Shown here: piece by piece, positions 6,530-38,532 of the stretch
Layout of the letters: each line of letters begins with the position of its first letter
How positions within the stretch are numbered: position 1 is the first letter of the stretch
DNA from: Escherichia phage p000v
Length of the DNA stretch: 64,000 nucleotides
Sequence record: NC_055781.1
Strand: one strand, 5' to 3'
Position numbers and translations under genes: made by a program
The notes under the pieces: model-generated
What the model was told of the DNA's origin: nothing
The model's database searches: none
Seen by the model: the letters and a program-made list of their open reading frames with translations, nothing else

Positions 6530-6829
6530 ACCGTGGTATTCTGCTCGATGGGAGACTGTCGAGCCAGACGTCGAAACAGTTTACAACGACGAAGAAACGT
6601 GTTATGATGAACCTACAGTAAACGATATGATTGATTTGGAAATGGGAAGAGATTATTATGCAAGTTAAATTATTGTACCGTTTATTAAAAAGTGGCAAGC
6701 ATGATTGGTATTTGCTTATTAAAACCGATCCGAATTTTTTCTCTGGACAACCATTTACAGTTCGTCCTACTAAACGTCAGCTTCGCAAAGCTAAACGTTC
6801 TCATCGTAACTTTTATAGAGAATATTGAT

Positions 6830-21643: not shown

Positions 21644-24355
21644 ATGAAAGAATTTTACTTAACGGTTGAACAGATTGGTGATTCAATTTTTGAACGTTAC
21701 ATCGATTCTAATGGCCGTGAACGTACTCGTGAAGTAGAATATAAACCATCACTGTTTGCTCATTGTCCGGAAAGTCAGGCTACGAAATATTTTGATATCT
21801 ACGGTAAGCCGTGTACTCGTAAACTATTCGCTAACATGCGTGATGCGTCTCAATGGATTAAACGCATGGAAGATATCGGACTTGAAGCACTTGGCATGGA
21901 CGATTTCAAATTAGCGTATTTGTCTGACACTTATAACTATGAAATCAAATACGACCATACAAAAATTCGTGTGGCTAACTTCGACATCGAAGTAACATCT
22001 CCGGATGGGTTCCCTGAGCCGTCACAAGCAAAACATCCTATTGATGCTATCACCCATTATGACTCAATTGACGACAGGTTCTACGTATTTGATCTATTGA
22101 ATTCTCCATATGGTAATGTAGAAGAATGGTCTATTGAAATCGCTGCTAAGCTTCAAGAACAAGGTGGTGATGAAGTTCCATCTGAAATTATCGATAAAAT
22201 CATTTATATGCCGTTCGATAACGAAAAAGAATTGTTGATGGAATATCTCAACTTCTGGCAACAGAAAACTCCTGTCATTTTGACTGGATGGAACGTTGAG
22301 TCATTTGATATTCCATATGTGTATAACAGAATCAAGAATATTTTTGGCGAATCTACTGCGAAACGTTTATCACCACATCGTAAAACTCGTGTTAAAGTTA
22401 TCGAAAACATGTATGGTTCTCGTGAAATCATTACATTGTTCGGTATCTCTGTTCTTGATTACATTGACCTTTACAAAAAATTCTCTTTTACCAATCAACC
22501 GTCGTATTCTCTGGATTACATTTCAGAATTTGAATTGAACGTTGGTAAACTGAAATATGACGGCCCTATTTCTAAGCTTCGTGAAAGCAATCACCAACGA
22601 TATATTTCTTATAACATCATCGACGTGTATCGTGTATTGCAAATTGATGCTAAGCGCCAGTTCATCAACTTGAGTTTGGACATGGGTTATTATGCTAAGA
22701 TACAGATTCAATCTGTGTTCAGCCCAATTAAAACATGGGATGCTATTATTTTTAATAGCCTTAAAGAGCAGAACAAGGTGATTCCACAAGGTCGTTCTCA
22801 CCCGGTTCAACCTTATCCTGGCGCTTTTGTTAAGGAACCTATTCCAAATCGATACAAATATGTAATGAGTTTCGACCTTACATCTCTGTATCCAAGTATT
22901 ATTCGCCAAGTGAATATTAGCCCAGAAACAATAGCAGGAACGTTTAAAGTAGCTCCATTGCATGATTATATTAACGCAATCGCTGAACGTCCTTCAGATG
23001 TGTACAGCTGCTCTCCTAATGGCATGATGTATTATAAAGACCGTGATGGTGTAGTTCCAACTGAAATCACTAAGGTCTTTAATCAACGTAAAGAACATAA
23101 AGGTTACATGCTTGCAGCTCAACGTAATGGTGAAATAATTAAAGAGGCATTGCATAATCCTAATCTTTCTGTTGACGAACCATTAGATGTTGATTATCGT
23201 TTCGACTTCACTGATGAGATTAAAGAAAAGATTAAAAAGTTGTCTGCTAAATCTCTTAATGAAATGTTGTTCAGAGCTCAACGTACTGAAGTTGCAGGTA
23301 TGACTGCACAAATTAACCGTAAATTGCTTATCAACTCACTTTATGGTGCACTTGGAAACGTTTGGTTCCGTTATTACGATTTGCGTAATGCAACTGCAAT
23401 CACAACATTTGGTCAAATGGCTTTACAGTGGATTGAACGTAAAGTTAATGAATATCTGAATGAAGTTTGTGGTACAGAAGGTGAAGCTTTCGTTCTTTAT
23501 GGTGATACAGACTCTATTTACGTATCTGCAGATAAAATTATTGATAAGGTTGGTGAATCTAAATTCCGTGATACCAACCATTGGGTGGACTTTTTAGATA
23601 AGTTTGCACGTGAACGTATGGAACCGGCTATTGATAGAGGTTTCCGTGAAATGTGTGAATACATGAACAATAAACAACACTTAATGTTCATGGACCGAGA
23701 AGCTATCGCTGGTCCTCCGCTCGGTTCTAAAGGTATTGGTGGATTCTGGACTGGTAAGAAACGTTATGCATTAAACGTGTGGGATATGGAAGGTACTCGT
23801 TACGCTGAGCCTAAACTCAAAATCATGGGTCTAGAGACTCAGAAATCTTCGACCCCTAAAGCAGTACAGAAAGCTCTTAAAGAATGTATTCGTCGTATGC
23901 TTCAAGAAGGTGAAGAATCATTACAAGAATATTTTAAAGAGTTTGAAAAAGAATTCCGTCAATTGAATTATATTAGCATCGCGTCGGTATCTTCTGCGAA
24001 TAACATTGCTAAATATGACGTTGGTGGATTCCCTGGTCCTAAATGCCCGTTCCATATTCGTGGAATTCTGACATATAACAGAGCTATCAAAGGTAATATT
24101 GATGCTCCACAAGTTGTAGAAGGCGAAAAGGTATACGTTCTGCCTTTACGTGATGGAAACCCGTTCGGTGATAAATGTATCGCATGGCCTTCTGGTACTG
24201 AAATCACAGATTTAATTAAAGACGACGTACTTCATTGGATGGACTACACTGTTCTCCTTGAGAAGACATTTATTAAACCACTTGAAGGATTCACATCAGC
24301 AGCGAAACTCGATTACGAGAAGAAAGCATCTCTGTTCGATATGTTCGATTTTTGA
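21644..24355 (+). CDS. 43: DNA polymerase gp43 (family B)
   Basis: 903 aa; exo motifs FDIE, polymerase motifs DLTSLYPSII and YGDTDS; N-terminus MKEFYLTVEQIGDSIFERYIDSNGRERTRE matches my recollection of RB69 gp43. Confidence 0.97.
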   Translation: MKEFYLTVEQIGDSIFERYIDSNGRERTREVEYKPSLFAHCPESQATKYFDIYGKPCTRKLFANMRDASQWIKRMEDIGLEALGMDDFKLAYLSDTYNYEIKYDHTKIRVANFDIEVTSPDGFPEPSQAKHPIDAITHYDSIDDRFYVFDLLNSPYGNVEEWSIEIAAKLQEQGGDEVPSEIIDKIIYMPFDNEKELLMEYLNFWQQKTPVILTGWNVESFDIPYVYNRIKNIFGESTAKRLSPHRKTRVKVIENMYGSREIITLFGISVLDYIDLYKKFSFTNQPSYSLDYISEFELNVGKLKYDGPISKLRESNHQRYISYNIIDVYRVLQIDAKRQFINLSLDMGYYAKIQIQSVFSPIKTWDAIIFNSLKEQNKVIPQGRSHPVQPYPGAFVKEPIPNRYKYVMSFDLTSLYPSIIRQVNISPETIAGTFKVAPLHDYINAIAERPSDVYSCSPNGMMYYKDRDGVVPTEITKVFNQRKEHKGYMLAAQRNGEIIKEALHNPNLSVDEPLDVDYRFDFTDEIKEKIKKLSAKSLNEMLFRAQRTEVAGMTAQINRKLLINSLYGALGNVWFRYYDLRNATAITTFGQMALQWIERKVNEYLNEVCGTEGEAFVLYGDTDSIYVSADKIIDKVGESKFRDTNHWVDFLDKFARERMEPAIDRGFREMCEYMNNKQHLMFMDREAIAGPPLGSKGIGGFWTGKKRYALNVWDMEGTRYAEPKLKIMGLETQKSSTPKAVQKALKECIRRMLQEGEESLQEYFKEFEKEFRQLNYISIASVSSANNIAKYDVGGFPGPKCPFHIRGILTYNRAIKGNIDAPQVVEGEKVYVLPLRDGNPFGDKCIAWPSGTEITDLIKDDVLHWMDYTVLLEKTFIKPLEGFTSAAKLDYEKKASLFDMFDF

Positions 24356-24395: not shown

Positions 24396-25031
24396 ATGAA
24401 AACTACACCAATCACTATCGCTATTGACGCAATCGTAAAACAAGCTTCATCTCTTGCCACTATGGCTAAAGTAATTAGTCAAAACTCTGCCCGATATAAT
24501 GCTATTCTTGAAACTCTTCGTCGCCCTGGACTGAGTAATTATGAAAGCCGAGTAATTATTACAGGTGTTGGTAAGAACGCTAATATCGCAACTAAAGCTT
24601 CCGAGACTTTTGCTTCACTAGGTATTCCTAGCATGTATTTGAACACCGGGCATTATTCTCATGGCGACGCAGGATTTATTGCACCTAATGATGTATTAGT
24701 TCACATCAGTCGTTCTGGTAAGACTGAAGAAATGATAGGTGTTGCTAAACATCTTCGTATGATTCGTCCTCAGGTTAAACAGATTCTGTTACATTGTAAC
24801 CCTGACATTCCGCAAGAATACGAAGCTCTTTTTGATTATACGTTCTGTACAGGCATCGCGGTAGAGGTTGATGAGAATTCTCTGGCTCCGACCATGTCCA
24901 CTACATTGTTGTTAGCGCTTATCGATACGTTTGCTATCAACCTTTCGTCTGAACGTGGATTTACCTCTAATGACTTCCTTAAGTTCCACCCTGGTGGTGC
25001 ACTAGGTGCCATGTTACGAGGCGAACAATGA
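24396..25031 (+). CDS. SIS-domain sugar-phosphate isomerase, KdsD/KpsF-like arabinose-5-phosphate isomerase without CBS domains
   Basis: ITGVGKNANIATKASETFASLGIPS, SHGDAGFIAPNDVLVHISRSGKTEE and HPGGALG resemble the API SIS domain. Confidence 0.8.
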   Translation: MKTTPITIAIDAIVKQASSLATMAKVISQNSARYNAILETLRRPGLSNYESRVIITGVGKNANIATKASETFASLGIPSMYLNTGHYSHGDAGFIAPNDVLVHISRSGKTEEMIGVAKHLRMIRPQVKQILLHCNPDIPQEYEALFDYTFCTGIAVEVDENSLAPTMSTTLLLALIDTFAINLSSERGFTSNDFLKFHPGGALGAMLRGEQ

Positions 25032-25171
25032 AAGCAATAACAATAGGACTTTTACTATTGATGCTTGTCATGACTATCTACTGGAGCTTAACGGCTCCAG
25101 TAATGATTCCGACTCTTATAATCGGATGGATTATGATTGGACTACAAGCAAAGTATGAATGCTTTAACTAG
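25028..25171 (+). CDS. small hydrophobic peptide (47 aa, two predicted TM helices)
   Basis: ATGA overlap with upstream stop; below ORF-track size cutoff. Confidence 0.35.
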   Translation: MKAITIGLLLLMLVMTIYWSLTAPVMIPTLIIGWIMIGLQAKYECFN

Positions 25172-25184
25172 AATAGTGTACAAT
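25158..25184 (+). promoter_or_regulatory. candidate middle promoter (MotA box TGCTTTA, -10 TACAAT)
   Basis: TGCTTTA at 25160-25166, 12 nt spacer, TACAAT at 25179-25184. Confidence 0.4.
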
Positions 25185-25212
25185 ACACCTACTTACCAAT
25201 GAGGACTTCAAC

Positions 25213-26898
25213 ATGAAAAAAGCTGTTATTCTTGGTGCTGGACTGGCAACTCGTTTGTATCCAATAACGCACCATATTCCTAAGGTGCTTGTTAACTATA
25301 AACAAGACACTATTCTGAGCAATTTGTATACAATTTATTCTGACCTTGGCGCAGATGAAATTATTGTAGTAGTTCATTCAAAATTTGCTGAAACTGTTCG
25401 AGCTTATTGCGAGCAAGAAGGGTTCAATGTGACTATTCGTACAGTTGATGAAGCGTATGGTTCTGCTTATGCTCTTGCTAAATTATACAAAGATTTAGAT
25501 GGCCATAACGTAATTGTTAACTGGTGTGATATTATTCCTGACTTTGGTTCATGGTCTTGGAATGTTAACGCAATCTATGTTAAGGGTGATGAATGTCGAT
25601 ATAATTTCGATGGTGAAAATATCACTAACGTAGGTTCAACAGGTGGTAATGTTGTAGGAATTTATCAGTTCAAAGACTGGGAATTCTACATGGGTTCTAC
25701 TGATGAGGAAATTCACGAATACTGCAAAGGTCGTGATTTCGTAGAATTCCTTTACGGCAGTGCATTCAATAAATCAGAGCTTATGAATCTAATTGATTTA
25801 GGTGATATGCCTAAACTTGAAAAGGCTCATGAAGTTCGTGAACTGAATCGTAGTTTTAATGCAGTTGAAATTGGCGAAGAAACTGTAACTAAATTCGCGT
25901 TAACCGAACAAGGTCGAGCTCTTCAAAAAGATGAGATTTCATGGTATTTGAAAGTGAAATCAGATTCAGTTCCTCAGTTAGTTTCGGTAAATGAAAATAA
26001 TTTTGAAATGGAACGTATTAAAGGTAAGCCGGCATTTGAATATATTAAATCCAAATCAAGTCTTGCTCGTCCACAAATTGTTGATGCAATTTTAGATGCA
26101 CTGAAATTCAGCACGGACACTTATTTTGTAAGTCCTGAAACTGTTCGCCGTGATTTCACTAAAGAGTTCTATACGAAAGTTATTGATCGTTGTGAAAGCA
26201 TTCAGCCATTGATTGATTCATTTGGTAAAATCACACGTGTGAACTACACTAAGATTGGACGTCTGAAGCCAATGTTGAAACAAGCTTTAGAACATCTTAT
26301 TCGTTATCATAACCGTTCTCAGGGACAGTACTCTGTTATTCATGGTGACCCGAACTTCAGTAATACTATGATTACCGATAACGGCGAAGTCAAGTTTATC
26401 GACCCTCGTGGATATTTTGGTGAAACCAAGATTTACGGGCCAAAATTGTATGATGAAGCTAAAGTGCTTTATGCTGTTTCAGGTTATGATGAATTCAATG
26501 CTAATCCGACCTGGGGTCAGTTTACTATTGATGAAACAACTTGTAATGTGACTATTAACATCAATCCATTAGTTTACAAATATGGAAAGATGAGTTCGTT
26601 TAACGAGTATCATCATTTGGCAGTAGCAATTATCTGGATTGCATTAGGTGGTTATTTCAAGAATAATCCACTTAAAGCGGTTGCCGCATATTATAAAGGT
26701 ATGGAACTTCTGACTAAGCAATTACGTAACATGGGCCGTGTACTTCAAGACGGCTCTATTAGTTATGACGTAGCAGAACCTGTAACGGCTACTCTGATTA
26801 CAAAAAATCCTGGTAAATGGGTACTAACTGATAAAGAAACTGGTGTTTCCTATCGTCCAATCGGCGGCGATATCACTCATCAATGGGAACGAATCTAA
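25213..26898 (+). CDS. bifunctional sugar-1-phosphate nucleotidyltransferase / APH-like sugar kinase
   Basis: N-terminus ILGAGLATRLYPITHHIPKVLV is an NTP-transferase signature; C-terminal HGDPNFSNTMITDNGEVKFIDPRGYFG is an APH/choline-kinase catalytic motif. Confidence 0.8.
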   Translation: MKKAVILGAGLATRLYPITHHIPKVLVNYKQDTILSNLYTIYSDLGADEIIVVVHSKFAETVRAYCEQEGFNVTIRTVDEAYGSAYALAKLYKDLDGHNVIVNWCDIIPDFGSWSWNVNAIYVKGDECRYNFDGENITNVGSTGGNVVGIYQFKDWEFYMGSTDEEIHEYCKGRDFVEFLYGSAFNKSELMNLIDLGDMPKLEKAHEVRELNRSFNAVEIGEETVTKFALTEQGRALQKDEISWYLKVKSDSVPQLVSVNENNFEMERIKGKPAFEYIKSKSSLARPQIVDAILDALKFSTDTYFVSPETVRRDFTKEFYTKVIDRCESIQPLIDSFGKITRVNYTKIGRLKPMLKQALEHLIRYHNRSQGQYSVIHGDPNFSNTMITDNGEVKFIDPRGYFGETKIYGPKLYDEAKVLYAVSGYDEFNANPTWGQFTIDETTCNVTININPLVYKYGKMSSFNEYHHLAVAIIWIALGGYFKNNPLKAVAAYYKGMELLTKQLRNMGRVLQDGSISYDVAEPVTATLITKNPGKWVLTDKETGVSYRPIGGDITHQWERI

Positions 26899-27284
26899 TG
26901 CACCGTGTAGAAAACATGCTTAATCTTTGTTTTGATGTCGATGATTGTATAACAGAGTGGAATAACAATCGTGATTACGTGAACTTCAAACCAGACGTCG
27001 AAATGGTGTCTGCCATTAATGCCCTGTATGATGCAGGGCATACCATAACGCTTTACACTGCCCGTGGTATGAAGTCGGTAGGTCCTGGTCGTATAGCAAT
27101 TGACATTCTCCCAAGTCTGATTCAGAACTTGGAAAACATTGGTTTGAAGTACCATAATTTGCTAACACATAAACCAGTATATGATTGGATTATCGACGAC
27201 AAAGCTATGCGTCCTGACGAATTCAAAGCTCTTATGAATAAAGGCGAATTCGAAACATTTAAATCATATAAACCAAATCTATAA
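26883..27284 (+). CDS. HAD-superfamily phosphatase (small, capless)
   Basis: Motif I FDVDDCIT, motif II TLYTAR, motif III/IV K..(n)..IIDDKA; alternative ATG at 26898. Confidence 0.7.
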   Translation: MGTNLMHRVENMLNLCFDVDDCITEWNNNRDYVNFKPDVEMVSAINALYDAGHTITLYTARGMKSVGPGRIAIDILPSLIQNLENIGLKYHNLLTHKPVYDWIIDDKAMRPDEFKALMNKGEFETFKSYKPNL

Positions 27285-27341
27285 TAATTTAAGTAAGACC
27301 TGCAAAAACCATCGCATCAATTAACGCGAGATGCAAAAAAA

Positions 27342-28502
27342 ATGAATACTTTTAAAATCGGAACGAATTTTGATTTAGCTCTTCTTGATAAAATCGTAGA
27401 GCTCAATAAAACCTATCCTAATAGCTTGATAAACGAAGTATATGGCTCTACAAGAGAAATGGCTTTTGTAGCAGCCAGACCTGATTTTAGGCTTCCTGAC
27501 GTTGACAAAAAGATGTTAGAAGACTACGTTAAACGTTGTAACGAATTAGGTATTTGCTTTAACTATACACTCAACACGATAAATCCTGGTTCAAAAAGAG
27601 AACTAGTTGAGTGGAAGAAGAAAGCTATTCAGGATTATGTTCAGTATCTTTGGTCAATAGGCGTATGGCGTATTACTATCGCTAACCCTGTTGTTATGGA
27701 AATTGTTCGTGAAGTCAATAAAGATATTGAGATTGAAGTTTCAACAATTCTACATGTCGATGCGGTAACTCAAATCAAATACTTACATGACCAATATAAC
27801 ATCAAAAAGGTCTGTTGCGGAATTCATAAGAACCGTTCAGTTTCTTTCCTGAAGCGTGCAGCAGAGTTTTGCAATAAGAACAATATAATATTTGAAGTTC
27901 TTGTAAATGAGTTCTGTTCTAATGCTGGTAAAGGGTATACAACACATTGTAGTTATCGTGACTCTTGCTATATTTTCCATAGTACTGATGTTACCGCTGA
28001 TGATGCTAAATCCTTAAATGGATATCCTATGCAGCACTGTATTAAAGCTCGTGATACAGACCCATTTAACTGGTTGAGAACTCGTTTTGTTCGTCCTCAA
28101 GATTTGAAACTTTATAATGATATTGGTATCACTCAATTCAAAGTTTCAGGACGTACAGGTAGCACAGACTACATTTTGAAAGTTCTTGAAGCATACGCTT
28201 CTGAAAAGTTTGAAGGTAATTTGTTAGAACTGTGGAAGCCTTTAGAGACTATTTTCACTCTTGAAAATGAGACTGAGTTTTCACATACAGTAAATATTGA
28301 AACCTCTTTGTTAGATGGCTTTTTAGAAAAAAGGTGGTTCAGACATCCAGATTTTGATTGTGCTAATGAAATCTGTGGGTCAACGTGTACATATTGTGAA
28401 AGGTATTATAAACGTCAATTATCTAAAAACGGGTTAGCAGAAAACTCCATATCTATTATTGATATAACTAACTCTGATGACGCTTTGAGGTACCCGGAAT
28501 GA
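27342..28502 (+). CDS. Cys-rich protein of unknown function (possible metal or Fe-S enzyme)
   Basis: 386 aa; Cys clusters CC, C-x10-C-x6-C and C-x4-C-x3-C-x2-C; no recognisable family by eye. Confidence 0.6.
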   Translation: MNTFKIGTNFDLALLDKIVELNKTYPNSLINEVYGSTREMAFVAARPDFRLPDVDKKMLEDYVKRCNELGICFNYTLNTINPGSKRELVEWKKKAIQDYVQYLWSIGVWRITIANPVVMEIVREVNKDIEIEVSTILHVDAVTQIKYLHDQYNIKKVCCGIHKNRSVSFLKRAAEFCNKNNIIFEVLVNEFCSNAGKGYTTHCSYRDSCYIFHSTDVTADDAKSLNGYPMQHCIKARDTDPFNWLRTRFVRPQDLKLYNDIGITQFKVSGRTGSTDYILKVLEAYASEKFEGNLLELWKPLETIFTLENETEFSHTVNIETSLLDGFLEKRWFRHPDFDCANEICGSTCTYCERYYKRQLSKNGLAENSISIIDITNSDDALRYPE

Positions 28503-28738
28503 TTTCTAGAAAAAGTTTTAATTATAAACTTAACGAAGAGATTTTGACTATGAAACTGAACACTAACGAACAAATTCTTAAAAAGGCCCTTATGGGCCTG
28601 TTTGAAACCAAAGCGGCTAAAGTGATTAAAGAACCTGTTCAATTGGAATACTACGCTGATGCATTTCTTCATAGTGTTCTTGGAAGTATCGATGCTGAAG
28701 CTTTACGTTATATCAACATTGTCAAGAAATTCAAATAA
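28499..28738 (+). CDS. hypothetical protein
   Basis: ATGA overlap with upstream stop. Confidence 0.4.
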   Translation: MISRKSFNYKLNEEILTMKLNTNEQILKKALMGLFETKAAKVIKEPVQLEYYADAFLHSVLGSIDAEALRYINIVKKFK

Positions 28739-28780: not shown

Positions 28781-29497
28781 ATGGGAAAACATAACACAAT
28801 GAAATATATCAAAGCCGCAGATTTTCAAACCGCATTTAAAGCAGTCAATCGTGAAATTTTAGAAAACCCGGAATTCGTAACTGATTCTCGTATTGGACGT
28901 TGTAATGAAATTGGGTCTATGACAGTAGTTGTTGACACTCCATCATCATTCAAAATGACCGACCCACGTATTAACCGCATCTCTTATGAATATGCCGAAG
29001 ACTTCTGGAAGTTTATGATTTCTGGTGGTACCAACGCAGAAGAAGCGTTTAAGGCATATCCTAATGTCGCTAAATTTATTTCTAAACCAAAATCAGATGT
29101 TTTGCCGGCGAACTTCAACACTTTCTATGGTCCTCGCATTGCGGCCCAATTACCAACTCTTCTAAAAGAACTTAAAGAGAAGCCTAACTCCCGAAGAGTT
29201 GTGTTCCAAATTCTAGAAAGTTCTGATCAGGCTTTGCTTGATTCGGACGAAACACTTGAATATCCATGTACTGACTCAGTAACTTATTATATTCGTGATG
29301 GTAAGCTTTATACCCACTGTCATATGCGTTCTCAGAACTGTGCTGTTGTTATGCAGTTGGATTTTTATCTCCAAGGAAAATTACTTCATTATATCGCTAA
29401 CGAATGCGGTGTAGAAGTTGGTGATTATACTCATACCATGGTAAGTGCCCATGTGTTTGAACGTGATTTTGATTATGTTAAAGGATTCCTTGACTAA
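28781..29497 (+). CDS. 42: thymidylate-synthase-fold pyrimidine hydroxymethylase (dCMP hydroxymethylase gp42)
   Basis: TS-like motifs NSRRVV, catalytic Cys in EYPCTDS, HMRSQN; synteny with T4 gene 42. Confidence 0.75.
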   Translation: MGKHNTMKYIKAADFQTAFKAVNREILENPEFVTDSRIGRCNEIGSMTVVVDTPSSFKMTDPRINRISYEYAEDFWKFMISGGTNAEEAFKAYPNVAKFISKPKSDVLPANFNTFYGPRIAAQLPTLLKELKEKPNSRRVVFQILESSDQALLDSDETLEYPCTDSVTYYIRDGKLYTHCHMRSQNCAVVMQLDFYLQGKLLHYIANECGVEVGDYTHTMVSAHVFERDFDYVKGFLD

Positions 29498-32561: not shown

Positions 32562-34004
32562 GTGGTAGAAATTATTTTGTCTCATCTAGTATACGACCAG
32601 GCTTATTTTTCTAAGGTCTGGCCTTATATGGATTCTGATTACTTTGAGCGTGGACCGGCAAAAAACGTCTTTAAAATTATAAAGAGCCACGTTAACGAAT
32701 ATAATGCAATGCCATCTATCAATGCATTAAAGGTGGCTTTAGATAACAGTTCTTTAACTGAAGCTGAATATAAAGGAACTTCAGACCTAATTGAAAAATT
32801 GGCTGATACTCCTGAAGACCATGAATGGCTGGTTAAAGAAACTGAGAAATATGTCCAGCAAAAAGCGATGTATAATGCTACATCCAAAATCATTGAGATT
32901 CAGTCTAATGCTGAACTACCTCCAGAACAACGTAACAAGAAAATGCCTGACGTAGGAGCTATTCCTGATATTATGCGTCAAGCGCTTTCAATTTCGTTCG
33001 ATAGTTATGTTGGACATGACTGGATGGAAGACTACGAAGCACGCTGGCTTTCTTATCTAAATAAAGCACGTAAGGTCCCGTTCAAATTAAACATTTTGAA
33101 TAAAATCACCAAAGGTGGTGCCGAAACCGGTACACTAAACGTTTTAATGGCGGGTGTTAACGTTGGTAAATCTTTAGGCCTTTGTTCACTTGCTGCAGAT
33201 TATCTTCAAACAGGTCATAATGTTCTTTATATTTCCATGGAAATGGCTGAAGAAGTTTGTGCTAAGCGTATAGATGCAAACATGCTTGACGTATCACTTG
33301 ATGATATCGATGATGGTAACGTATCTTATGCTGAATATAAAGCCAAGATGGAAAAATGGCGTTCAAAAACAACATTAGGACGTTTAGTAGTTAAACAGTA
33401 TCCTACCGGTGGAGCTAATGCTAATACATTCCGTGCATTGCTTAATGAGTTAAAACTCAAGAAGAACTTTGTGCCGTCTGTAATCATGGTTGATTACTTA
33501 GGTATTTGTGGGTCTTGTCGTATCAGAGTTTACACTGAAAATAGCTACACATTAGTTAAAGCTATCGCAGAAGAACTTCGTGCATTAGCAGTAGAATCTG
33601 AAACAGTTCTATGGACTGCTGCTCAGGTAGGACGTGCAGCATGGGATGCTTCAGACATGAACATGAGTGATATCGCAGAATCAGCAGGTTTACCAGCAAC
33701 GGCAGATTTCATGTTGGCTGTAATTGAAACCGAAGAACTTGCACAAGCTGAACAACAACTTATCAAACAAATCAAATCACGATATGGTGATAAGAATAAG
33801 TGGAATAAATTCCTGATGGGTGTACGTAAAGGCAATCAGAAATGGGTTGAGATTGAGCAAGAAGGCATGAACACACCTAACACAGTAAATGAAAACGCAG
33901 GTGCTCAGATGCGTCAAGCAGAGGTGAATCGTACGGAACGCGTAGGTAAAGCCAAAGCAACACGTGCTGACCTAGATAGCTTAGCCAACGAGTTAAAATT
34001 TTAA
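32562..34004 (+). CDS. 41: replicative helicase gp41 (DnaB family), GTG start
   Basis: MVEIILSHL...Walker A GVNVGKS; matches recalled T4 gp41; RBS AAGGAG 5 nt upstream of GTG. Confidence 0.93.
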   Translation: MVEIILSHLVYDQAYFSKVWPYMDSDYFERGPAKNVFKIIKSHVNEYNAMPSINALKVALDNSSLTEAEYKGTSDLIEKLADTPEDHEWLVKETEKYVQQKAMYNATSKIIEIQSNAELPPEQRNKKMPDVGAIPDIMRQALSISFDSYVGHDWMEDYEARWLSYLNKARKVPFKLNILNKITKGGAETGTLNVLMAGVNVGKSLGLCSLAADYLQTGHNVLYISMEMAEEVCAKRIDANMLDVSLDDIDDGNVSYAEYKAKMEKWRSKTTLGRLVVKQYPTGGANANTFRALLNELKLKKNFVPSVIMVDYLGICGSCRIRVYTENSYTLVKAIAEELRALAVESETVLWTAAQVGRAAWDASDMNMSDIAESAGLPATADFMLAVIETEELAQAEQQLIKQIKSRYGDKNKWNKFLMGVRKGNQKWVEIEQEGMNTPNTVNENAGAQMRQAEVNRTERVGKAKATRADLDSLANELKF

Positions 34005-34010
34005 TAAAAA

Positions 34011-34029
34011 GGAGACTTCGGTCTCCTTT
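34011..34029 (+). terminator. hairpin GGAGAC-UUCG-GUCUCC + UUU
   Basis: 6 bp stem with UUCG loop right after gene 41. Confidence 0.55.
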
Positions 34030-34033
34030 CGGG

Positions 34034-34063
34034 GTTTACATCTTCCTCTAGGCATGATATGAT
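34034..34063 (+). promoter_or_regulatory. candidate early promoter GTTTAC ... TATGAT
   Basis: GTTTAC at 34034-34039, -10-like TATGAT 18 nt downstream. Confidence 0.4.
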
Positions 34064-34092
34064 GTACTTACACTAACCAAGAGGAAAACATT

Positions 34093-34467
34093 ATGAATAT
34101 GTCTCAAGCAATTTTTACTGCAATCACCGAAAACACAACTGTTGAAGTAGTTTCTCCGCTGGCAACCTACGTTATTCTTGCTCCTAAATCTATTGTATCT
34201 CGTATGGAAAACATGGGCAAACGTATCGTACAAATCGTTGGAGCCGGAAATCAAAAACTTGATTATCTGCGAACCATCAAAGCTTATGAACATTTCCAAC
34301 TCGAAAAAGGTTCTCCCATCCAGGTAGAACTCGTAAATGGTGATATCGTTCGAGCAATGTTCCATCATTTCTATGCATTGAATGACCCATCTAAAGCGGT
34401 TCGTTTAATTGCATACGACGCAAACCAAAACGAAATCAACGCAGATATATCTAAATTACGTTTTTAA
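34093..34467 (+). CDS. hypothetical protein
   Basis: ORF track 124 aa; RBS GAGGAAAA. Confidence 0.5.
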   Translation: MNMSQAIFTAITENTTVEVVSPLATYVILAPKSIVSRMENMGKRIVQIVGAGNQKLDYLRTIKAYEHFQLEKGSPIQVELVNGDIVRAMFHHFYALNDPSKAVRLIAYDANQNEINADISKLRF

Positions 34468-34515
34468 GTTTACTTCTCCAGTAGTTATGTTATTATAGAT
34501 CTATCAACTACTGGA
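34456..34515 (+). promoter_or_regulatory. early promoter embedded in palindrome (TCTCCAGTAGTT ... AACTACTGGAGA)
   Basis: GTTTAC then ATGTTATTATAGATCTATC flanked by a 12 bp inverted repeat; related copy at 2255-2287. Confidence 0.45.
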
Positions 34516-34522
34516 GAACAAA

Positions 34523-34840
34523 ATGAAAACCATCGATTGTAAAGCAGAATTTAAGATTTTTTATCACGGTTCAAGTAGTTCAGCTAACATCGAAAACATG
34601 CTTTGTCCTCCTGAAGAAACAGGAGTTCTGTCTGAAACCGGACGTAAGAAAAACTTGAATCGTGTATTCTTTACTGAAGATATCGGTTTAGCAAAGATTT
34701 ACGCAGGACGAGCAGCACGCTCTTATGGAGGTGAACCACGTCTCTATCGAGTAATTTCTCCGGTAGATGTAGTTCAAATGAATGATACTAAAGGTGCTAC
34801 AGTTTATCATGCTGAATGGGCATTTTGCGAGGAAATATGA
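34523..34840 (+). CDS. hypothetical protein
   Basis: ORF track 105 aa. Confidence 0.5.
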   Translation: MKTIDCKAEFKIFYHGSSSSANIENMLCPPEETGVLSETGRKKNLNRVFFTEDIGLAKIYAGRAARSYGGEPRLYRVISPVDVVQMNDTKGATVYHAEWAFCEEI

Positions 34841-35025
34841 GCAAATTAACTAAAATTACTTTTATTGGCTGGTTTAAAAGCGGTGAGATGTTCACTAAAG
34901 ATATCATGTTATCAGGTGATCGTGAAGAAATCGAGTGGGTTGCGGTGCAACTCGCCGAAGTGAACAATGCATTAGTTAAAGCATTTATTAATGACGAGAA
35001 AGTTTTTGAAGCTGATTTTCGATAA
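34837..35025 (+). CDS. hypothetical protein
   Basis: ATGA overlap with upstream stop. Confidence 0.4.
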   Translation: MSKLTKITFIGWFKSGEMFTKDIMLSGDREEIEWVAVQLAEVNNALVKAFINDEKVFEADFR

Positions 35026-35096
35026 TTTTAAAATAACTGTTTACAAGCACCACATACTGTGTTACTATCTTTTTATCAACTACAGAGGAAATTGAA

Positions 35097-35465
35097 ATGA
35101 AAAAATTAATCGCTTTAGCAATGGTATTTGGATTAACAGGATGTGGTGCTCATGGCTTTATCCCTAATAACGTTGGCCAATTGATTTATAACCCGAATGT
35201 TAAACAGTACAACCAACCTAAAGTTGAAGTGGAAGACCCGGTTACTGTAGGTAATCGAATGATTCAAGCTGATGCCCATGCTCAACGTTATCGTGATTCT
35301 GATACTGTAGCATTGTCAAAAGAACAACGCGTTAAAGAACATTGCTTACAGGCTACTGAAATCGCATTCATTCGCTATGTTGAAACAACTGGCAAAGAGC
35401 CTTCCCAGAAACAAATCGCGAATAACTACGTCCAGTGTATTGAACGTTTAAACAAATTTAATTAA
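35097..35465 (+). CDS. putative lipoprotein
   Basis: Signal peptide with lipobox LTGC. Confidence 0.55.
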   Translation: MKKLIALAMVFGLTGCGAHGFIPNNVGQLIYNPNVKQYNQPKVEVEDPVTVGNRMIQADAHAQRYRDSDTVALSKEQRVKEHCLQATEIAFIRYVETTGKEPSQKQIANNYVQCIERLNKFN

Positions 35466-35526
35466 TTGGTTTACACCAAAGTTAAACCAAGATACTATAA
35501 ACATAACAAATCAAGAGGAAATTAAC

Positions 35527-35775
35527 ATGGAATTATTCGTGGCTAGTTCAGTAGCAGTTTTAATCGCAGGTATTGGTTCAATCATCATTTACATGTTGCC
35601 TTGGGTAATCGCACTTATTCGTGGCACAAAAAGCACAACAGCAATCTTCTTTGTATCTTTACTCTTTAACTGGACGATGATTGGTTGGATTGGAACTTTA
35701 ATTTGGTCTATCGTTGCCGAAAAGAAATCTGCTCAGCAGACTCAACAAGTAATTATTATTCGCGAAAAAGAATAA
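35527..35775 (+). CDS. membrane protein (two TM segments)
   Basis: Hydrophobic throughout. Confidence 0.5.
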   Translation: MELFVASSVAVLIAGIGSIIIYMLPWVIALIRGTKSTTAIFFVSLLFNWTMIGWIGTLIWSIVAEKKSAQQTQQVIIIREKE

Positions 35776-35838
35776 ACTTGTTTACATTATAGATGGACTA
35801 TAGTATAGTAGTCCTATCAAATCAACTAAGGAGTTAAA

Positions 35839-36132
35839 ATGAAAAAGTTATCATTGGCAGCAATCCTACTTGCAGTATCATGTGCACCGGCTCCAGTTAC
35901 GGCAGGTTATGATAAAGACCTCTGTGAGTGGTCAATGACTGCAAATCAAGAAGATGTTGAACAACAAATCTTCTCTGATATCATGAACATCACTAAACGA
36001 GACCGTCCTAATATGGTTAATAAAGTTGTTGAACAACTTAAGTCTGGCGGTATCATGCAGTACAACTATGTTTTGTATTGTGACCCTAATTTCGATAACA
36101 AAGATATCGTAACCGAAATCACAGGTGAATAA
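35839..36132 (+). CDS. secreted/periplasmic small protein
   Basis: Signal peptide MKKLSLAAILLAVSCAPAPVTAG. Confidence 0.5.
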   Translation: MKKLSLAAILLAVSCAPAPVTAGYDKDLCEWSMTANQEDVEQQIFSDIMNITKRDRPNMVNKVVEQLKSGGIMQYNYVLYCDPNFDNKDIVTEITGE

Positions 36133-36133
36133 T

Positions 36134-36784
36134 ATGATTTATTATATGCACAAAAACGCGCCATTTAAATATGGTAAATTTCCTAATGCACAATGTTATA
36201 ATATAACGCCGAATGAAAATAATAACGGATACCATATTGGTGTAATTTTTGTAATTGTTAAAGATAACGAAATCGTTGCCTGGGCAGATTTTAAAGGTAC
36301 AACATATGATGTTAATCCTGTGCCTTTCACATATTACAATATAATGGATTTGGCATATGATTATAATTGGTTTACTCATGACACGTTGGCTCATATTGAA
36401 GGTGTAGGATTTGACATCTCTTATTCTAGCTATTCGTTACGTCCTATGAGCCGAGCTCACGGTAAAGATGTATCATATCTTTCAATTCGGAAACGTGTAA
36501 ACTTCAAACGTAGTACAGAGTATGTTGGTGGACTCTTTGTTAAAGATAATAAAATAACCCGTATTAGTTATCCTTTAAGTGTAGATCAAAAAGATGTTGA
36601 TGTTGATTTAGTCTTAACTGAAAGTAACATTAATCGTATTGCTTCTGTATATTTTGATATCAATGAAAAAATTGTAGTGTGTGGATACGAATTACCACTT
36701 GAAGAAAAGGCTGAAGCAATTGAAGTCGAATTAGAAATTTCTGTTGATGACCAAATATTTAATGCATTTATGAATCGAGGTTAA
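36134..36784 (+). CDS. hypothetical protein
   Basis: ATG at 36134 just after upstream stop. Confidence 0.5.
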   Translation: MIYYMHKNAPFKYGKFPNAQCYNITPNENNNGYHIGVIFVIVKDNEIVAWADFKGTTYDVNPVPFTYYNIMDLAYDYNWFTHDTLAHIEGVGFDISYSSYSLRPMSRAHGKDVSYLSIRKRVNFKRSTEYVGGLFVKDNKITRISYPLSVDQKDVDVDLVLTESNINRIASVYFDINEKIVVCGYELPLEEKAEAIEVELEISVDDQIFNAFMNRG

Positions 36785-36785
36785 A

Positions 36786-36983
36786 ATGACTACTGCAATT
36801 TGCACTGGTTCTAAAATTAGTGTTTTTACAAGTTTTGAAGATTATGAAGTTGTTTCAAAACACCAATACAATATTAACGTAAAAGCTAATGATGGTGTAA
36901 TTTGGAATATTCCACACTATGAAGACACTACATATGAAGTCACAGATGCGAACGGTGATAAAGCGATCTTTGTGATTGATTAA
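36786..36983 (+). CDS. hypothetical protein
   Basis: ORF track. Confidence 0.4.
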   Translation: MTTAICTGSKISVFTSFEDYEVVSKHQYNINVKANDGVIWNIPHYEDTTYEVTDANGDKAIFVID

Positions 36984-37002
36984 ATATACTCAGGAGGTAC
37001 CT

Positions 37003-37470
37003 ATGGGTATTATTAACACTGCAATAGATTCTGTTTACGCATATAAGTTTATTCGACTAATGCAAAAACCTTTTACCGAATGGAAAGCGTACGAAGCCAA
37101 AATAATCGACGAACGTGGAAGTGTTCTTAAACGTCCTTCTACTCCCGAAGAGAAAGCGGCTTATACACCTTTTCATGCTTCAGTTCGTTCAATGAAGCGA
37201 ATGATGAGTACTGTTCCAGGTCTTAATGGAATGGCCTCAATGATGTCTGCCTGGAGTGCTGTAGCTTCACGCTATAACATTACTGAAGAACAACAGAAAG
37301 AAATATTTAAAGAACTCCCTTTATTTGAGGATATGGTTGCTGGTGATTCAGGTGGCAGTCCTCAAGCTATTGCATCAGGAACAACTACAGGTGCAGTCGT
37401 AAATAAAGGTCCAGAACAAATTCCTTCCAAGAAAAGAAAGCGAATTAAAGTAAATATTAATAAGTTGTGA
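37003..37470 (+). CDS. hypothetical protein
   Basis: ATG with RBS AGGAGG. Confidence 0.5.
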   Translation: MGIINTAIDSVYAYKFIRLMQKPFTEWKAYEAKIIDERGSVLKRPSTPEEKAAYTPFHASVRSMKRMMSTVPGLNGMASMMSAWSAVASRYNITEEQQKEIFKELPLFEDMVAGDSGGSPQAIASGTTTGAVVNKGPEQIPSKKRKRIKVNINKL

Positions 37471-37509
37471 TAAGATGGCCTTATTAATTTAAGGCCTCTG
37501 GAGAATACT

Positions 37510-38532
37510 ATGGCTGAATGGATAGATAATGAATTTGCTTATCGTGCGTTTTCTCACCTACCTCGTTTTAGACAAATCAATAATTCAAGCACATTTAAAT
37601 TAACATTTCGATGCCCAGTTTGTGGCGACTCTCAGACAGATGCAATGAAAGCCCGCGGATGGTATTATGGCGGTACTCCAGGTAATGTGCATTGCTATAA
37701 CTGCCAATATCATAATACAATTTCTGGATACTTAAAAGAGTACGATGAAGAGCTTTATCGCGAGTATCTAATGGAAGTTCGTAAAGAAAAAGCTAGAATG
37801 GAACCAAAGATTGAAAAGGTTCCTGAACATAAACCGGAACCGGAGAAAAAGACTATAAATTCTTTGCCGTCTTGTTCTCGTCTGGACAAGTTGCCTGAAG
37901 AGCATCCTATTGTGAAATATGTTAAGTCTCGGTGTATTCCTAAAGAATCATGGAACAGATTATGGTTCACATTAGAATGGCCCAAATTGGTCAACAAGAT
38001 TCAACCTGGTACGTATAAGAAAGAGATTCCCGAGCCACGTTTAGTGATTCCTATTTTTAATAAAGACGGGAAGGCCGAGTCATTCCAAGGACGTGCACTT
38101 CGTAAAGATGCTCCTCAAAAATATATCACTATTAAAGCTTTTGAATCCGCAACAAAAATTTATGGTGTTGAACGTGTTAAGGAAGGGGACGTCTGGGTAA
38201 TGGAAGGCCCTATTGATAGTTTATTCATACCCAATGCAATAGCTATTACAGGCGGCTCAATAGATTTAGATGTGGTGCCATTTAAAGAACGTCGGGTATG
38301 GGTAATGGATAATGAACCTAGGCATCCGGATACTATAGCTCGTATGAAGCGATTAGTTGATGCAGGCGAACGTGTCATGTTCTGGGACCGAGCTCCATGG
38401 AGATCAAAGGATGTGAATGATATGGTAATGAAAGAAAATGCAACACCACAAGAAATTTTAGAATATATGAAACAGAATATTTCAAGTGGGTTGCATGCTA
38501 AAATGAGATTATCTCGTTATTCGAAGATTTAA
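37510..38532 (+). CDS. 61: DNA primase gp61
   Basis: Zinc ribbon CPVCGDS..CYNC, TOPRIM-like MEGPIDSLF and VMDNE; 340 aa. Confidence 0.9.
   Translation: MAEWIDNEFAYRAFSHLPRFRQINNSSTFKLTFRCPVCGDSQTDAMKARGWYYGGTPGNVHCYNCQYHNTISGYLKEYDEELYREYLMEVRKEKARMEPKIEKVPEHKPEPEKKTINSLPSCSRLDKLPEEHPIVKYVKSRCIPKESWNRLWFTLEWPKLVNKIQPGTYKKEIPEPRLVIPIFNKDGKAESFQGRALRKDAPQKYITIKAFESATKIYGVERVKEGDVWVMEGPIDSLFIPNAIAITGGSIDLDVVPFKERRVWVMDNEPRHPDTIARMKRLVDAGERVMFWDRAPWRSKDVNDMVMKENATPQEILEYMKQNISSGLHAKMRLSRYSKI

Follow-up and report, generated by a model that had tools for sequence, protein, structure and literature searches.

The stretch of Escherichia phage p000v considered here (sequence record NC_055781.1; 64,000 nucleotides, hereafter the window, numbered from its first letter) carries three consecutive open reading frames (ORFs) on the + strand at 35097–36132, flanked by gp41 and gp61. 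This locus is very probably the annotated imm.1–imm–sp trio of an RB69-like (Mosigvirus) T-even coliphage, an early and envelope-targeted gene set that protects the infected cell from secondary T-even phages. ORF1 is identified by its sequence matches as Imm.1, ORF2 as the orthologue of T4 Imm and ORF3 as the orthologue of T4 Spackle (Sp), the product of sp. The locus is not new, having been annotated before, and its residual novelty lies in the function of Imm.1 only. Nothing in the evidence gathered contradicts the identification of the trio.

All three products score above the Pfam gathering thresholds. Imm.1 falls into DUF5481 (PF17578; E value 3.7e-9, 37.4 bits against a cutoff of 27), Imm into Imm_superinfect (PF14373; 1.4e-15, 57.3 bits against a cutoff of 27.9, profile positions 1–42 of 42) and Sp into T4_Spackle (PF25676; 1.1e-42, 145 bits against a cutoff of 27, residues 1–96 of 96). 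The corresponding PHROG families are phrog_1754 for Imm.1 (3.6e-29), phrog_1039, 'immunity to superinfection', for Imm (2e-30) and phrog_1586, 'spackle periplasmic', for Sp. The T4 counterparts are 32% identical for Imm.1 (E 1e-19), 64% identical over the full length for Imm and 66% identical for Sp, which is 97 residues long in both phages. Sp additionally matches the protein structures 6x6o, 6xc0 and 6xc1 in PDB (1.4e-39), and the mature chain of 7cn6 is aligned from residue 23. In the RB69 RefSeq genome, where the three genes bear the names imm.1, imm and sp, the gene order reads dmd, 61.4, imm.1, imm, sp, 61.2.

A sequence-only reading of this DNA had described a lipoprotein with an LTGC lipobox, an 82-residue protein and a 97-residue protein encoded consecutively between gp41 and gp61, and its coordinates and strand are exact. 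The export features that it proposed are also borne out as predictions, since a hydropathy and motif calculation finds the lipobox in the first protein, two hydrophobic blocks in the second and a signal peptide in the third. The same reading held that the three proteins are unrecognisable by sequence and may be alternative host-envelope effectors; in its full form this would make them novel effectors without recognisable relatives, replacing T4 functions. The export signals fit such a view, as does the finding that NCBIfam has no model for Imm.1, Imm or Sp. However, the curated Pfam matches, the identities of 32–66% to named T4 proteins and the RB69 names refute it: these are the standard effectors, and the notion of three unrelated newcomers is left with a vanishingly small probability.

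The wider sequence context leads to the same group of phages. The window is a T-even phage segment in which 3.6 kb around the trio is 98.6% identical at the nucleotide level to Escherichia phage CCU7 and 97–98% identical to many Mosigvirus (RB69-like) genomes, and these relatives carry the annotations spackle, immunity and Dmd. Homologues of the trio are conserved across hundreds of phage genomes. Each gene is preceded by a ribosome-binding site, GAGGA or AAGGAG, 6–9 nucleotides before the ATG. Comparison with two relatives yields ratios of synonymous to non-synonymous differences of 8:1 and 14:3 for imm.1, a pattern indicative of purifying selection on this gene, and of 4:0 and 2:0 for sp, while the tied ratio for imm (2:2) is uninformative. 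Together with the promoter motifs and the Pfam matches, these features establish the trio as real genes and not chance ORFs. Rfam returned no RNA family in the interval 34000–37600.

The trio genes are predicted to be separately promoted and expressed early. A scan for the T4-type early promoter pattern GTTTAC-N17-19-TANNNT, with 100 shuffles as the control, detected 22 sites in the whole window against 2.7 expected, a number that was reached in none of the 100 shuffles; all but two of the sites (20/22) are on the + strand. A motif of this type is located 29–31 nucleotides upstream of the ATG of each trio gene. These three belong to a run of five consecutive small genes past gp41, each endowed with its own early-type motif (34034, 34468, 35039, 35469 and 35780), and the annotation of phage SA35RD has an early promoter where the site upstream of imm.1 lies. 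No terminator-like sites were found within 35000–36200.

The assignment of Spackle extends to individual residues. The N-terminus of the window protein consists, by hydropathy and motif calculation, of an MKK n-region, a hydrophobic core and a VTA/GYD junction, and signal cleavage is predicted after Ala22 to yield a 75-residue periplasmic protein. The structure of T4 Spackle in complex with gp5 lysozyme discloses a mature protein of 75 residues with a Cys29–Cys81 disulfide, which touches the lysozyme with the backbone of Ser32-Met33-Thr34-Ala35 and with the Gln37 and Asn76 side chains (PMC7677548). All these residues (A22/G23, C29, C81, S32, M33, T34, A35, Q37 and N76) recur unchanged, with the same numbering, in the window protein. 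Sp would thus be exported, cut after Ala22 and oxidised at Cys29–Cys81, and would then bind the lysozyme domain of the gp5 tail spike of the incoming phage, bringing peptidoglycan digestion to a halt. As 66% of the sequence and every listed contact residue are conserved, the T4 Spackle mechanism can be transferred to the window protein with good confidence.

A comparable case can be made for Imm, which displays two hydrophobic blocks, at approximately residues 1–34 and 40–59, with a Kyte–Doolittle maximum of 2.51. According to a recent preprint (10.64898/2026.03.06.709160, 2026), T4 Imm acts by binding gp29, the tape-measure protein, at its helical-bundle domain, with the result that no DNA conduit is formed, and the substitutions R33A and W50A reduce exclusion by T4 Imm. 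These two residues are conserved and align to R32 and W49 of the window protein. Given the 64% identity and the conservation of the Arg and Trp required for activity, the mechanism is transferred with good confidence: Imm would reside in the inner membrane, bind the helical-bundle domain of gp29 of an incoming phage and so block formation of the DNA conduit. The genes for the window phage's own gp5 and gp29 lie outside the window.

The suggestion of the sequence-only reading that the region encodes factors for superinfection exclusion therefore stands for two of the three proteins, the orthologues of T4 Imm and Spackle, which are well-studied barriers against a second phage. Its mention of lysis inhibition was imprecise: rI and rIII, the dedicated lysis-inhibition genes, are not in this region, but sp and imm mutants are partly defective in lysis inhibition, and both Sp and Imm influence resistance to lysis from without as well as the stability of lysis inhibition (PMC6832632).

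Imm.1 presents a different picture, as its family is very small and restricted to T-even phages. A word-indexed search for homologues retrieved three clusters from the single sequence and six from a profile, and an exhaustive profile search recovered only six proteins in 1.84 billion representatives; a family of this size does not allow a deep alignment to be built. Pfam and PHROG match Imm.1 to nothing beyond its own family. One metagenome protein from ENA (P0003, 198 residues) carries a DNA_pol_A Pfam domain and matches 23% of the Imm.1 query at 96% identity; a chimeric gene call or a mis-assembly is the most likely explanation. One paper lists Imm.1 among the genes differing between the T4 and RB69 groups, a difference that, at 32% identity, is one of divergence and not of absence as judged from the two sequences.

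The window protein begins MKKLIALAMVFGLTGC, with an MKK n-region, a hydrophobic core and the lipobox LTGC at residues 13–16 (LTG/C16), followed by Gly at position +2. The lipobox Cys occurs in four lineages, namely T4, the window phage and the family members P0008 and P0009, and the +2 residue, which is Val, Ala or Ser elsewhere, is never Asp. In Escherichia coli the Lol sorting rule assigns lipoproteins with a +2 residue other than Asp to the outer membrane, and an outer-membrane anchor is accordingly predicted for Imm.1. In an AlphaFold2 model built on a five-sequence alignment, residues 1–44 are disordered and comprise the signal peptide and a tether with the conserved motif YNPNVK.Y; a helix of lower confidence (48–68) is followed by a helical hairpin (75–98 and 104–120), with a predicted local distance difference test (pLDDT) score of about 90 for residues 81–120. 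Cys83 and Cys114, both in the hairpin, are invariant among the aligned full-length family members and would be compatible with a periplasmic disulfide in this model. Imm.1 may hence be pictured as a lipoprotein anchored in the outer membrane through a flexible tether of about 30 residues and exposing to the periplasm a helical hairpin able to form a disulfide. A Foldseek search of BFVD with the model returned two matches at E <= 0.001, both Imm.1-type proteins.

The record counts of Imm.1 and of the closer Imm proteins match. Of the 655 phage records that contain Imm.1, 153 belong to the Mosigvirus type and 502 to the Tequatrovirus type, and Imm proteins at least 60% identical to that of the window are found in an equal number of records (655, or 152 + 1 + 502). 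Conservation is pronounced, with an identity of at least 95% in every one of the 502 Tequatrovirus records, reaching 100% in Yersinia phage fPS-2. The gene is located directly upstream of imm in the window, T4, RB14, RB69 and three metagenomic loci (L007–L009), and the pair is encountered in three contexts: between genes 43 and 42 in T4, RB14 and a metagenomic tequatrovirus; between dmd or 61.4 and sp in Mosigvirus; and after a frd.3-like gene on a metagenomic contig. This arrangement suggests that the pair moves as a cassette.

Lipobox proteins accompany imm in other genera too. In Gelderlandvirus S16 such a protein, gp27, is encoded directly upstream of imm, and in Dhakavirus MX01 and phage 212 one is encoded just downstream. 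These three proteins share the post-lipobox motif QG[DE]VV.A.E[VI]GK with the Imm.1 proteins of T4, P0008 and P0009. Alignment of DUF5481 with the imm-flanking lipoproteins by hhalign covers the first 30 columns only, which correspond to the signal peptide and (E/D)(V/I)GK, and with a hidden Markov model of the mature part of DUF5481 the MX01, 212 and S16 lipoproteins score no better than shuffles; only the comparison of P0009 with phage 212 ranks first (E 0.005) in a test set of 903 sequences. For these reasons homology of the lipoproteins to Imm.1 is not claimed, and the wider pairing of imm with a lipoprotein is an unproven hint.

Imm.1 is tentatively, and with low confidence, regarded as an accessory, non-essential and periplasm-facing part of the same envelope-protection function that Imm and Sp perform. 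A bolder and similarly uncertain proposal is that lipoproteins of the Imm.1 type may constitute a third component of T-even superinfection exclusion or envelope protection, travelling with imm as a two-gene cassette and having the lipobox proteins of Dhakavirus and Gelderlandvirus as analogues. Imm.1 would then complement Sp, which operates at the peptidoglycan step, and Imm, which operates at the inner-membrane step. On both views its target would be something conserved, either in the incoming tail tip or in the envelope, and not a specific receptor.

The weaknesses of this account are confined to Imm.1. Plasmid-expressed Imm excludes T4 by itself, as Lu and Henning reportedly found in 1989, which renders Imm.1 dispensable for Imm activity. 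In 406 phage records with a more distant Imm, tblastn detects no Imm.1. The metagenomic proteins P0002 and P0005 (L009 718–1086 and L007 6001–6372), which are 45–46% identical to window Imm.1, possess a plain AHA signal-peptidase I site with the lipobox Cys replaced by Phe or Ser; Imm.1 of these lineages would be soluble in the periplasm, and the family pattern thus indicates a conserved export signal but no universal lipidation. The AlphaFold2 model has a mean pLDDT of 61.5 and is confident only over residues ~75–120, and a Foldseek search of PDB with it gave no match at E <= 0.001. Finally, no functional study of DUF5481 or imm.1 was found in the literature.

One alternative is that Imm.1 fulfils an envelope role apart from exclusion, such as modulating when lysis inhibition occurs or how stable it is, buffering envelope stress during infection or counteracting a host defence based in the envelope, and that its linkage to imm stems from a shared early operon. 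In T4, imm.1 and imm are separated by 7 bp and a single early-type promoter motif is situated upstream of imm.1, so that a shared transcription unit could alone preserve the linkage; the activity of Imm without Imm.1 and the lysis-inhibition phenotypes of imm and sp mutants point in the same direction. Set against this, the two genes in the window are 61 bp apart and have their own promoter motifs, and they are nevertheless still adjacent after relocation, while the lipobox proteins that flank imm in Dhakavirus and Gelderlandvirus hint at functional and not just transcriptional coupling. A separate role is the main rival of the accessory reading and about as probable, neither being considered likely.

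A second alternative would make Imm.1 a lipoprotein that masks the receptor in the manner of T5 Llp or T1 Cor: it would bind the outer-membrane receptor, block secondary adsorption and prevent the loss of progeny on cell debris. The early-type promoter motif, the lipobox and the non-Asp +2 residue would suit such a function, for which Llp and Cor provide a precedent in virulent coliphages (PMC11990801). However, the near-identity of Imm.1 across the 502 Tequatrovirus records leaves no co-variation with receptor specificity. T4 employs OmpC and lipopolysaccharide as its receptor and T6 employs Tsx, yet the Imm.1 proteins of these two phages are 98.4% identical, which argues that Imm.1 does not co-vary with receptor choice. 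Furthermore, imm.1 is linked to imm among replication genes and not to tail-fibre or adhesin genes, Imm.1 has no likeness in sequence or fold outside its own family, the lipid anchor is lost in two of its lineages, and a secondary phage still adsorbs to T4-infected cells (PMC6832632). Receptor masking is very unlikely, and it was rejected because the protein stays the same whichever receptor a phage uses.

The locus departs from its T4 equivalent in the position of imm.1–imm. The sequence-only reading had assigned periplasmic or membrane factors for superinfection exclusion and lysis inhibition to this region of T4, a picture that is imprecise; in T4, sp is the only member of the trio found between 41 and 61, and imm.1–imm is placed between 43 and 42. 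The slot between dmd and sp is occupied by 61.4 in T4, and RB69-type phages have the imm.1–imm pair between 61.4 and sp. In the window phage 61.4 is missing between dmd and imm.1 (35026–35096), where RB69, CAU_ECP01 and PECP20 have a homologue of 70 residues (L001 2531–2743) that is 57% identical to T4 gp61.4. Gene 61.4 is thus a 206-bp presence/absence polymorphism within Mosigvirus, which explains the indel of 206 bp in nucleotide alignments. A tblastn search against the window alone also gave a short match to a C-terminal gp61.4 motif like FAVRPTKRQIRQ at 6754–6807, far from the 61.4 site (18–19 residues, 63–67% identity, E ~0.001); this may be a chance or paralogous motif.

In the window, the place that imm.1–imm holds in T4 corresponds to 24396–28738, between gp43 (21644–24355) and a gp42-like gene (28781–29497). 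It accommodates a SIS-domain gene, a gene for a 561-residue nucleotidyltransferase, a 133-residue ORF, a U32-peptidase-like gene and a 79-residue ORF. This cluster probably serves DNA modification of the RB69 type, with sugar (arabinose) hydroxymethylcytosine.

Table 1. Positions of the trio, its flanking genes and predicted early promoter-like sites in the window, and of lipobox proteins beside imm in other phages (locus handles given for the latter).
Feature	Position	Strand	Description
gp41 helicase	32562–34004		upstream flank
dmd	34837–35025	+	upstream neighbour; Pfam Dmd 2e-19; 53% identity to T4 Dmd
Early promoter-like site	35039–35068	+	T4-type, GTTTACA-N17-TACTAT, before imm.1
imm.1 (ORF1)	35097–35465	+	122-residue predicted lipoprotein, DUF5481
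Early promoter-like site	35469–35498	+	T4-type, before imm
imm (ORF2)	35527–35775	+	82-residue predicted inner-membrane superinfection immunity protein
Early promoter-like site	35780–35809	+	T4-type, GTTTACA-N17-TATAGT, before sp
sp (spackle; ORF3)	35839–36132	+	T4 gene 61.3 equivalent; 97-residue precursor, 75-residue mature protein, predicted periplasmic
61.2/adfA (anti-DarT factor A)	36134–36784	+	downstream neighbour; Pfam PF23813 1.1e-114; 63% identity to T4 gp61.2
gp61 primase	37510–38532		downstream flank
Lipobox proteins beside imm (S16, MX01, phage 212)	L010 1526–1972; L011 2352–2852; L012 2394–2897		

Next to the trio, 61.2/adfA starts 2 nucleotides past the stop codon of sp. A few genes upstream of adfA, a 105-residue ORF (34523–34840) belongs to phrog_2110 and is RB69ORF040c-like. 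It shows a sub-threshold match to the Pfam family Arr-ms, a rifampin ADP-ribosyltransferase (E 0.083, 13.5 bits against a cutoff of 25), a sequence search of PDB returned no match for it, and its single-sequence AlphaFold2 model is unusable (pLDDT 40.8). Further downstream, an ORF of 164 residues (36976–37470) matches T4 gp61.1 (54 residues) over its C-terminal ~50 residues only, at 69% identity. The equivalent segment of RB69 is annotated as two separate genes, RB69ORF032c and 61.1, and the window ORF may therefore be a fusion or reflect a different start-codon call.

With respect to significance, the gene call of the trio leaves the field unchanged. As imm.1, imm and sp are adjacent and separately promoted in RB69-type phages, they offer a compact cassette through which superinfection exclusion could be engineered or removed. 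Imm.1 emerges as a predicted exported protein that is tightly linked to imm, restricted to T-even phages and strongly conserved, whose role, now that the mechanism of Imm has been worked out, could complete a layer-by-layer picture of envelope sealing.

Comparison with known systems places the three proteins at different distances from their counterparts. T5 Llp and the Cor proteins of T1 and phi80, which block FhuA, are small early phage lipoproteins aimed at the envelope as Imm.1 is, but the resemblance is one of kind only, with neither sequence nor fold similarity. T4 Imm.1, annotated as a 'hypothetical predicted membrane protein', is closer: it starts MKIAILVIALGLAGC and has the lipobox LAGC where the window protein has LTGC, and the two share the motifs YNPNVK.Y and D..AQ.YR.SD and the Cys pair of the C-terminal helices. 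In contrast, a post-lipobox segment, QGPVV..SDVGK, and an extra Cys pair (C33 and C44) are present in the T4 protein and absent from that of the window. T4 Imm and window Imm have in common the core LPW..AL.RG.KST...F..SLLFNW..IGW, the C-terminal VIIIREKE and the two hydrophobic blocks, and in both phages imm.1 lies directly 5' of imm; the T4 spacer of 7 bp is replaced in the window by the longer one with its own imm promoter motif. T4 Spackle (PDB 6X6O, 6XC0, 6XC1, 7CN6 and 7CN7) is encoded directly 5' of 61.2/adfA, as is the window protein, whereas the upstream neighbour of sp is 61.4 in T4 and imm in the window phage. About one third of the Spackle residues differ between the two phages, and these differences may tune the window protein to the gp5 lysozyme of RB69-type phages.

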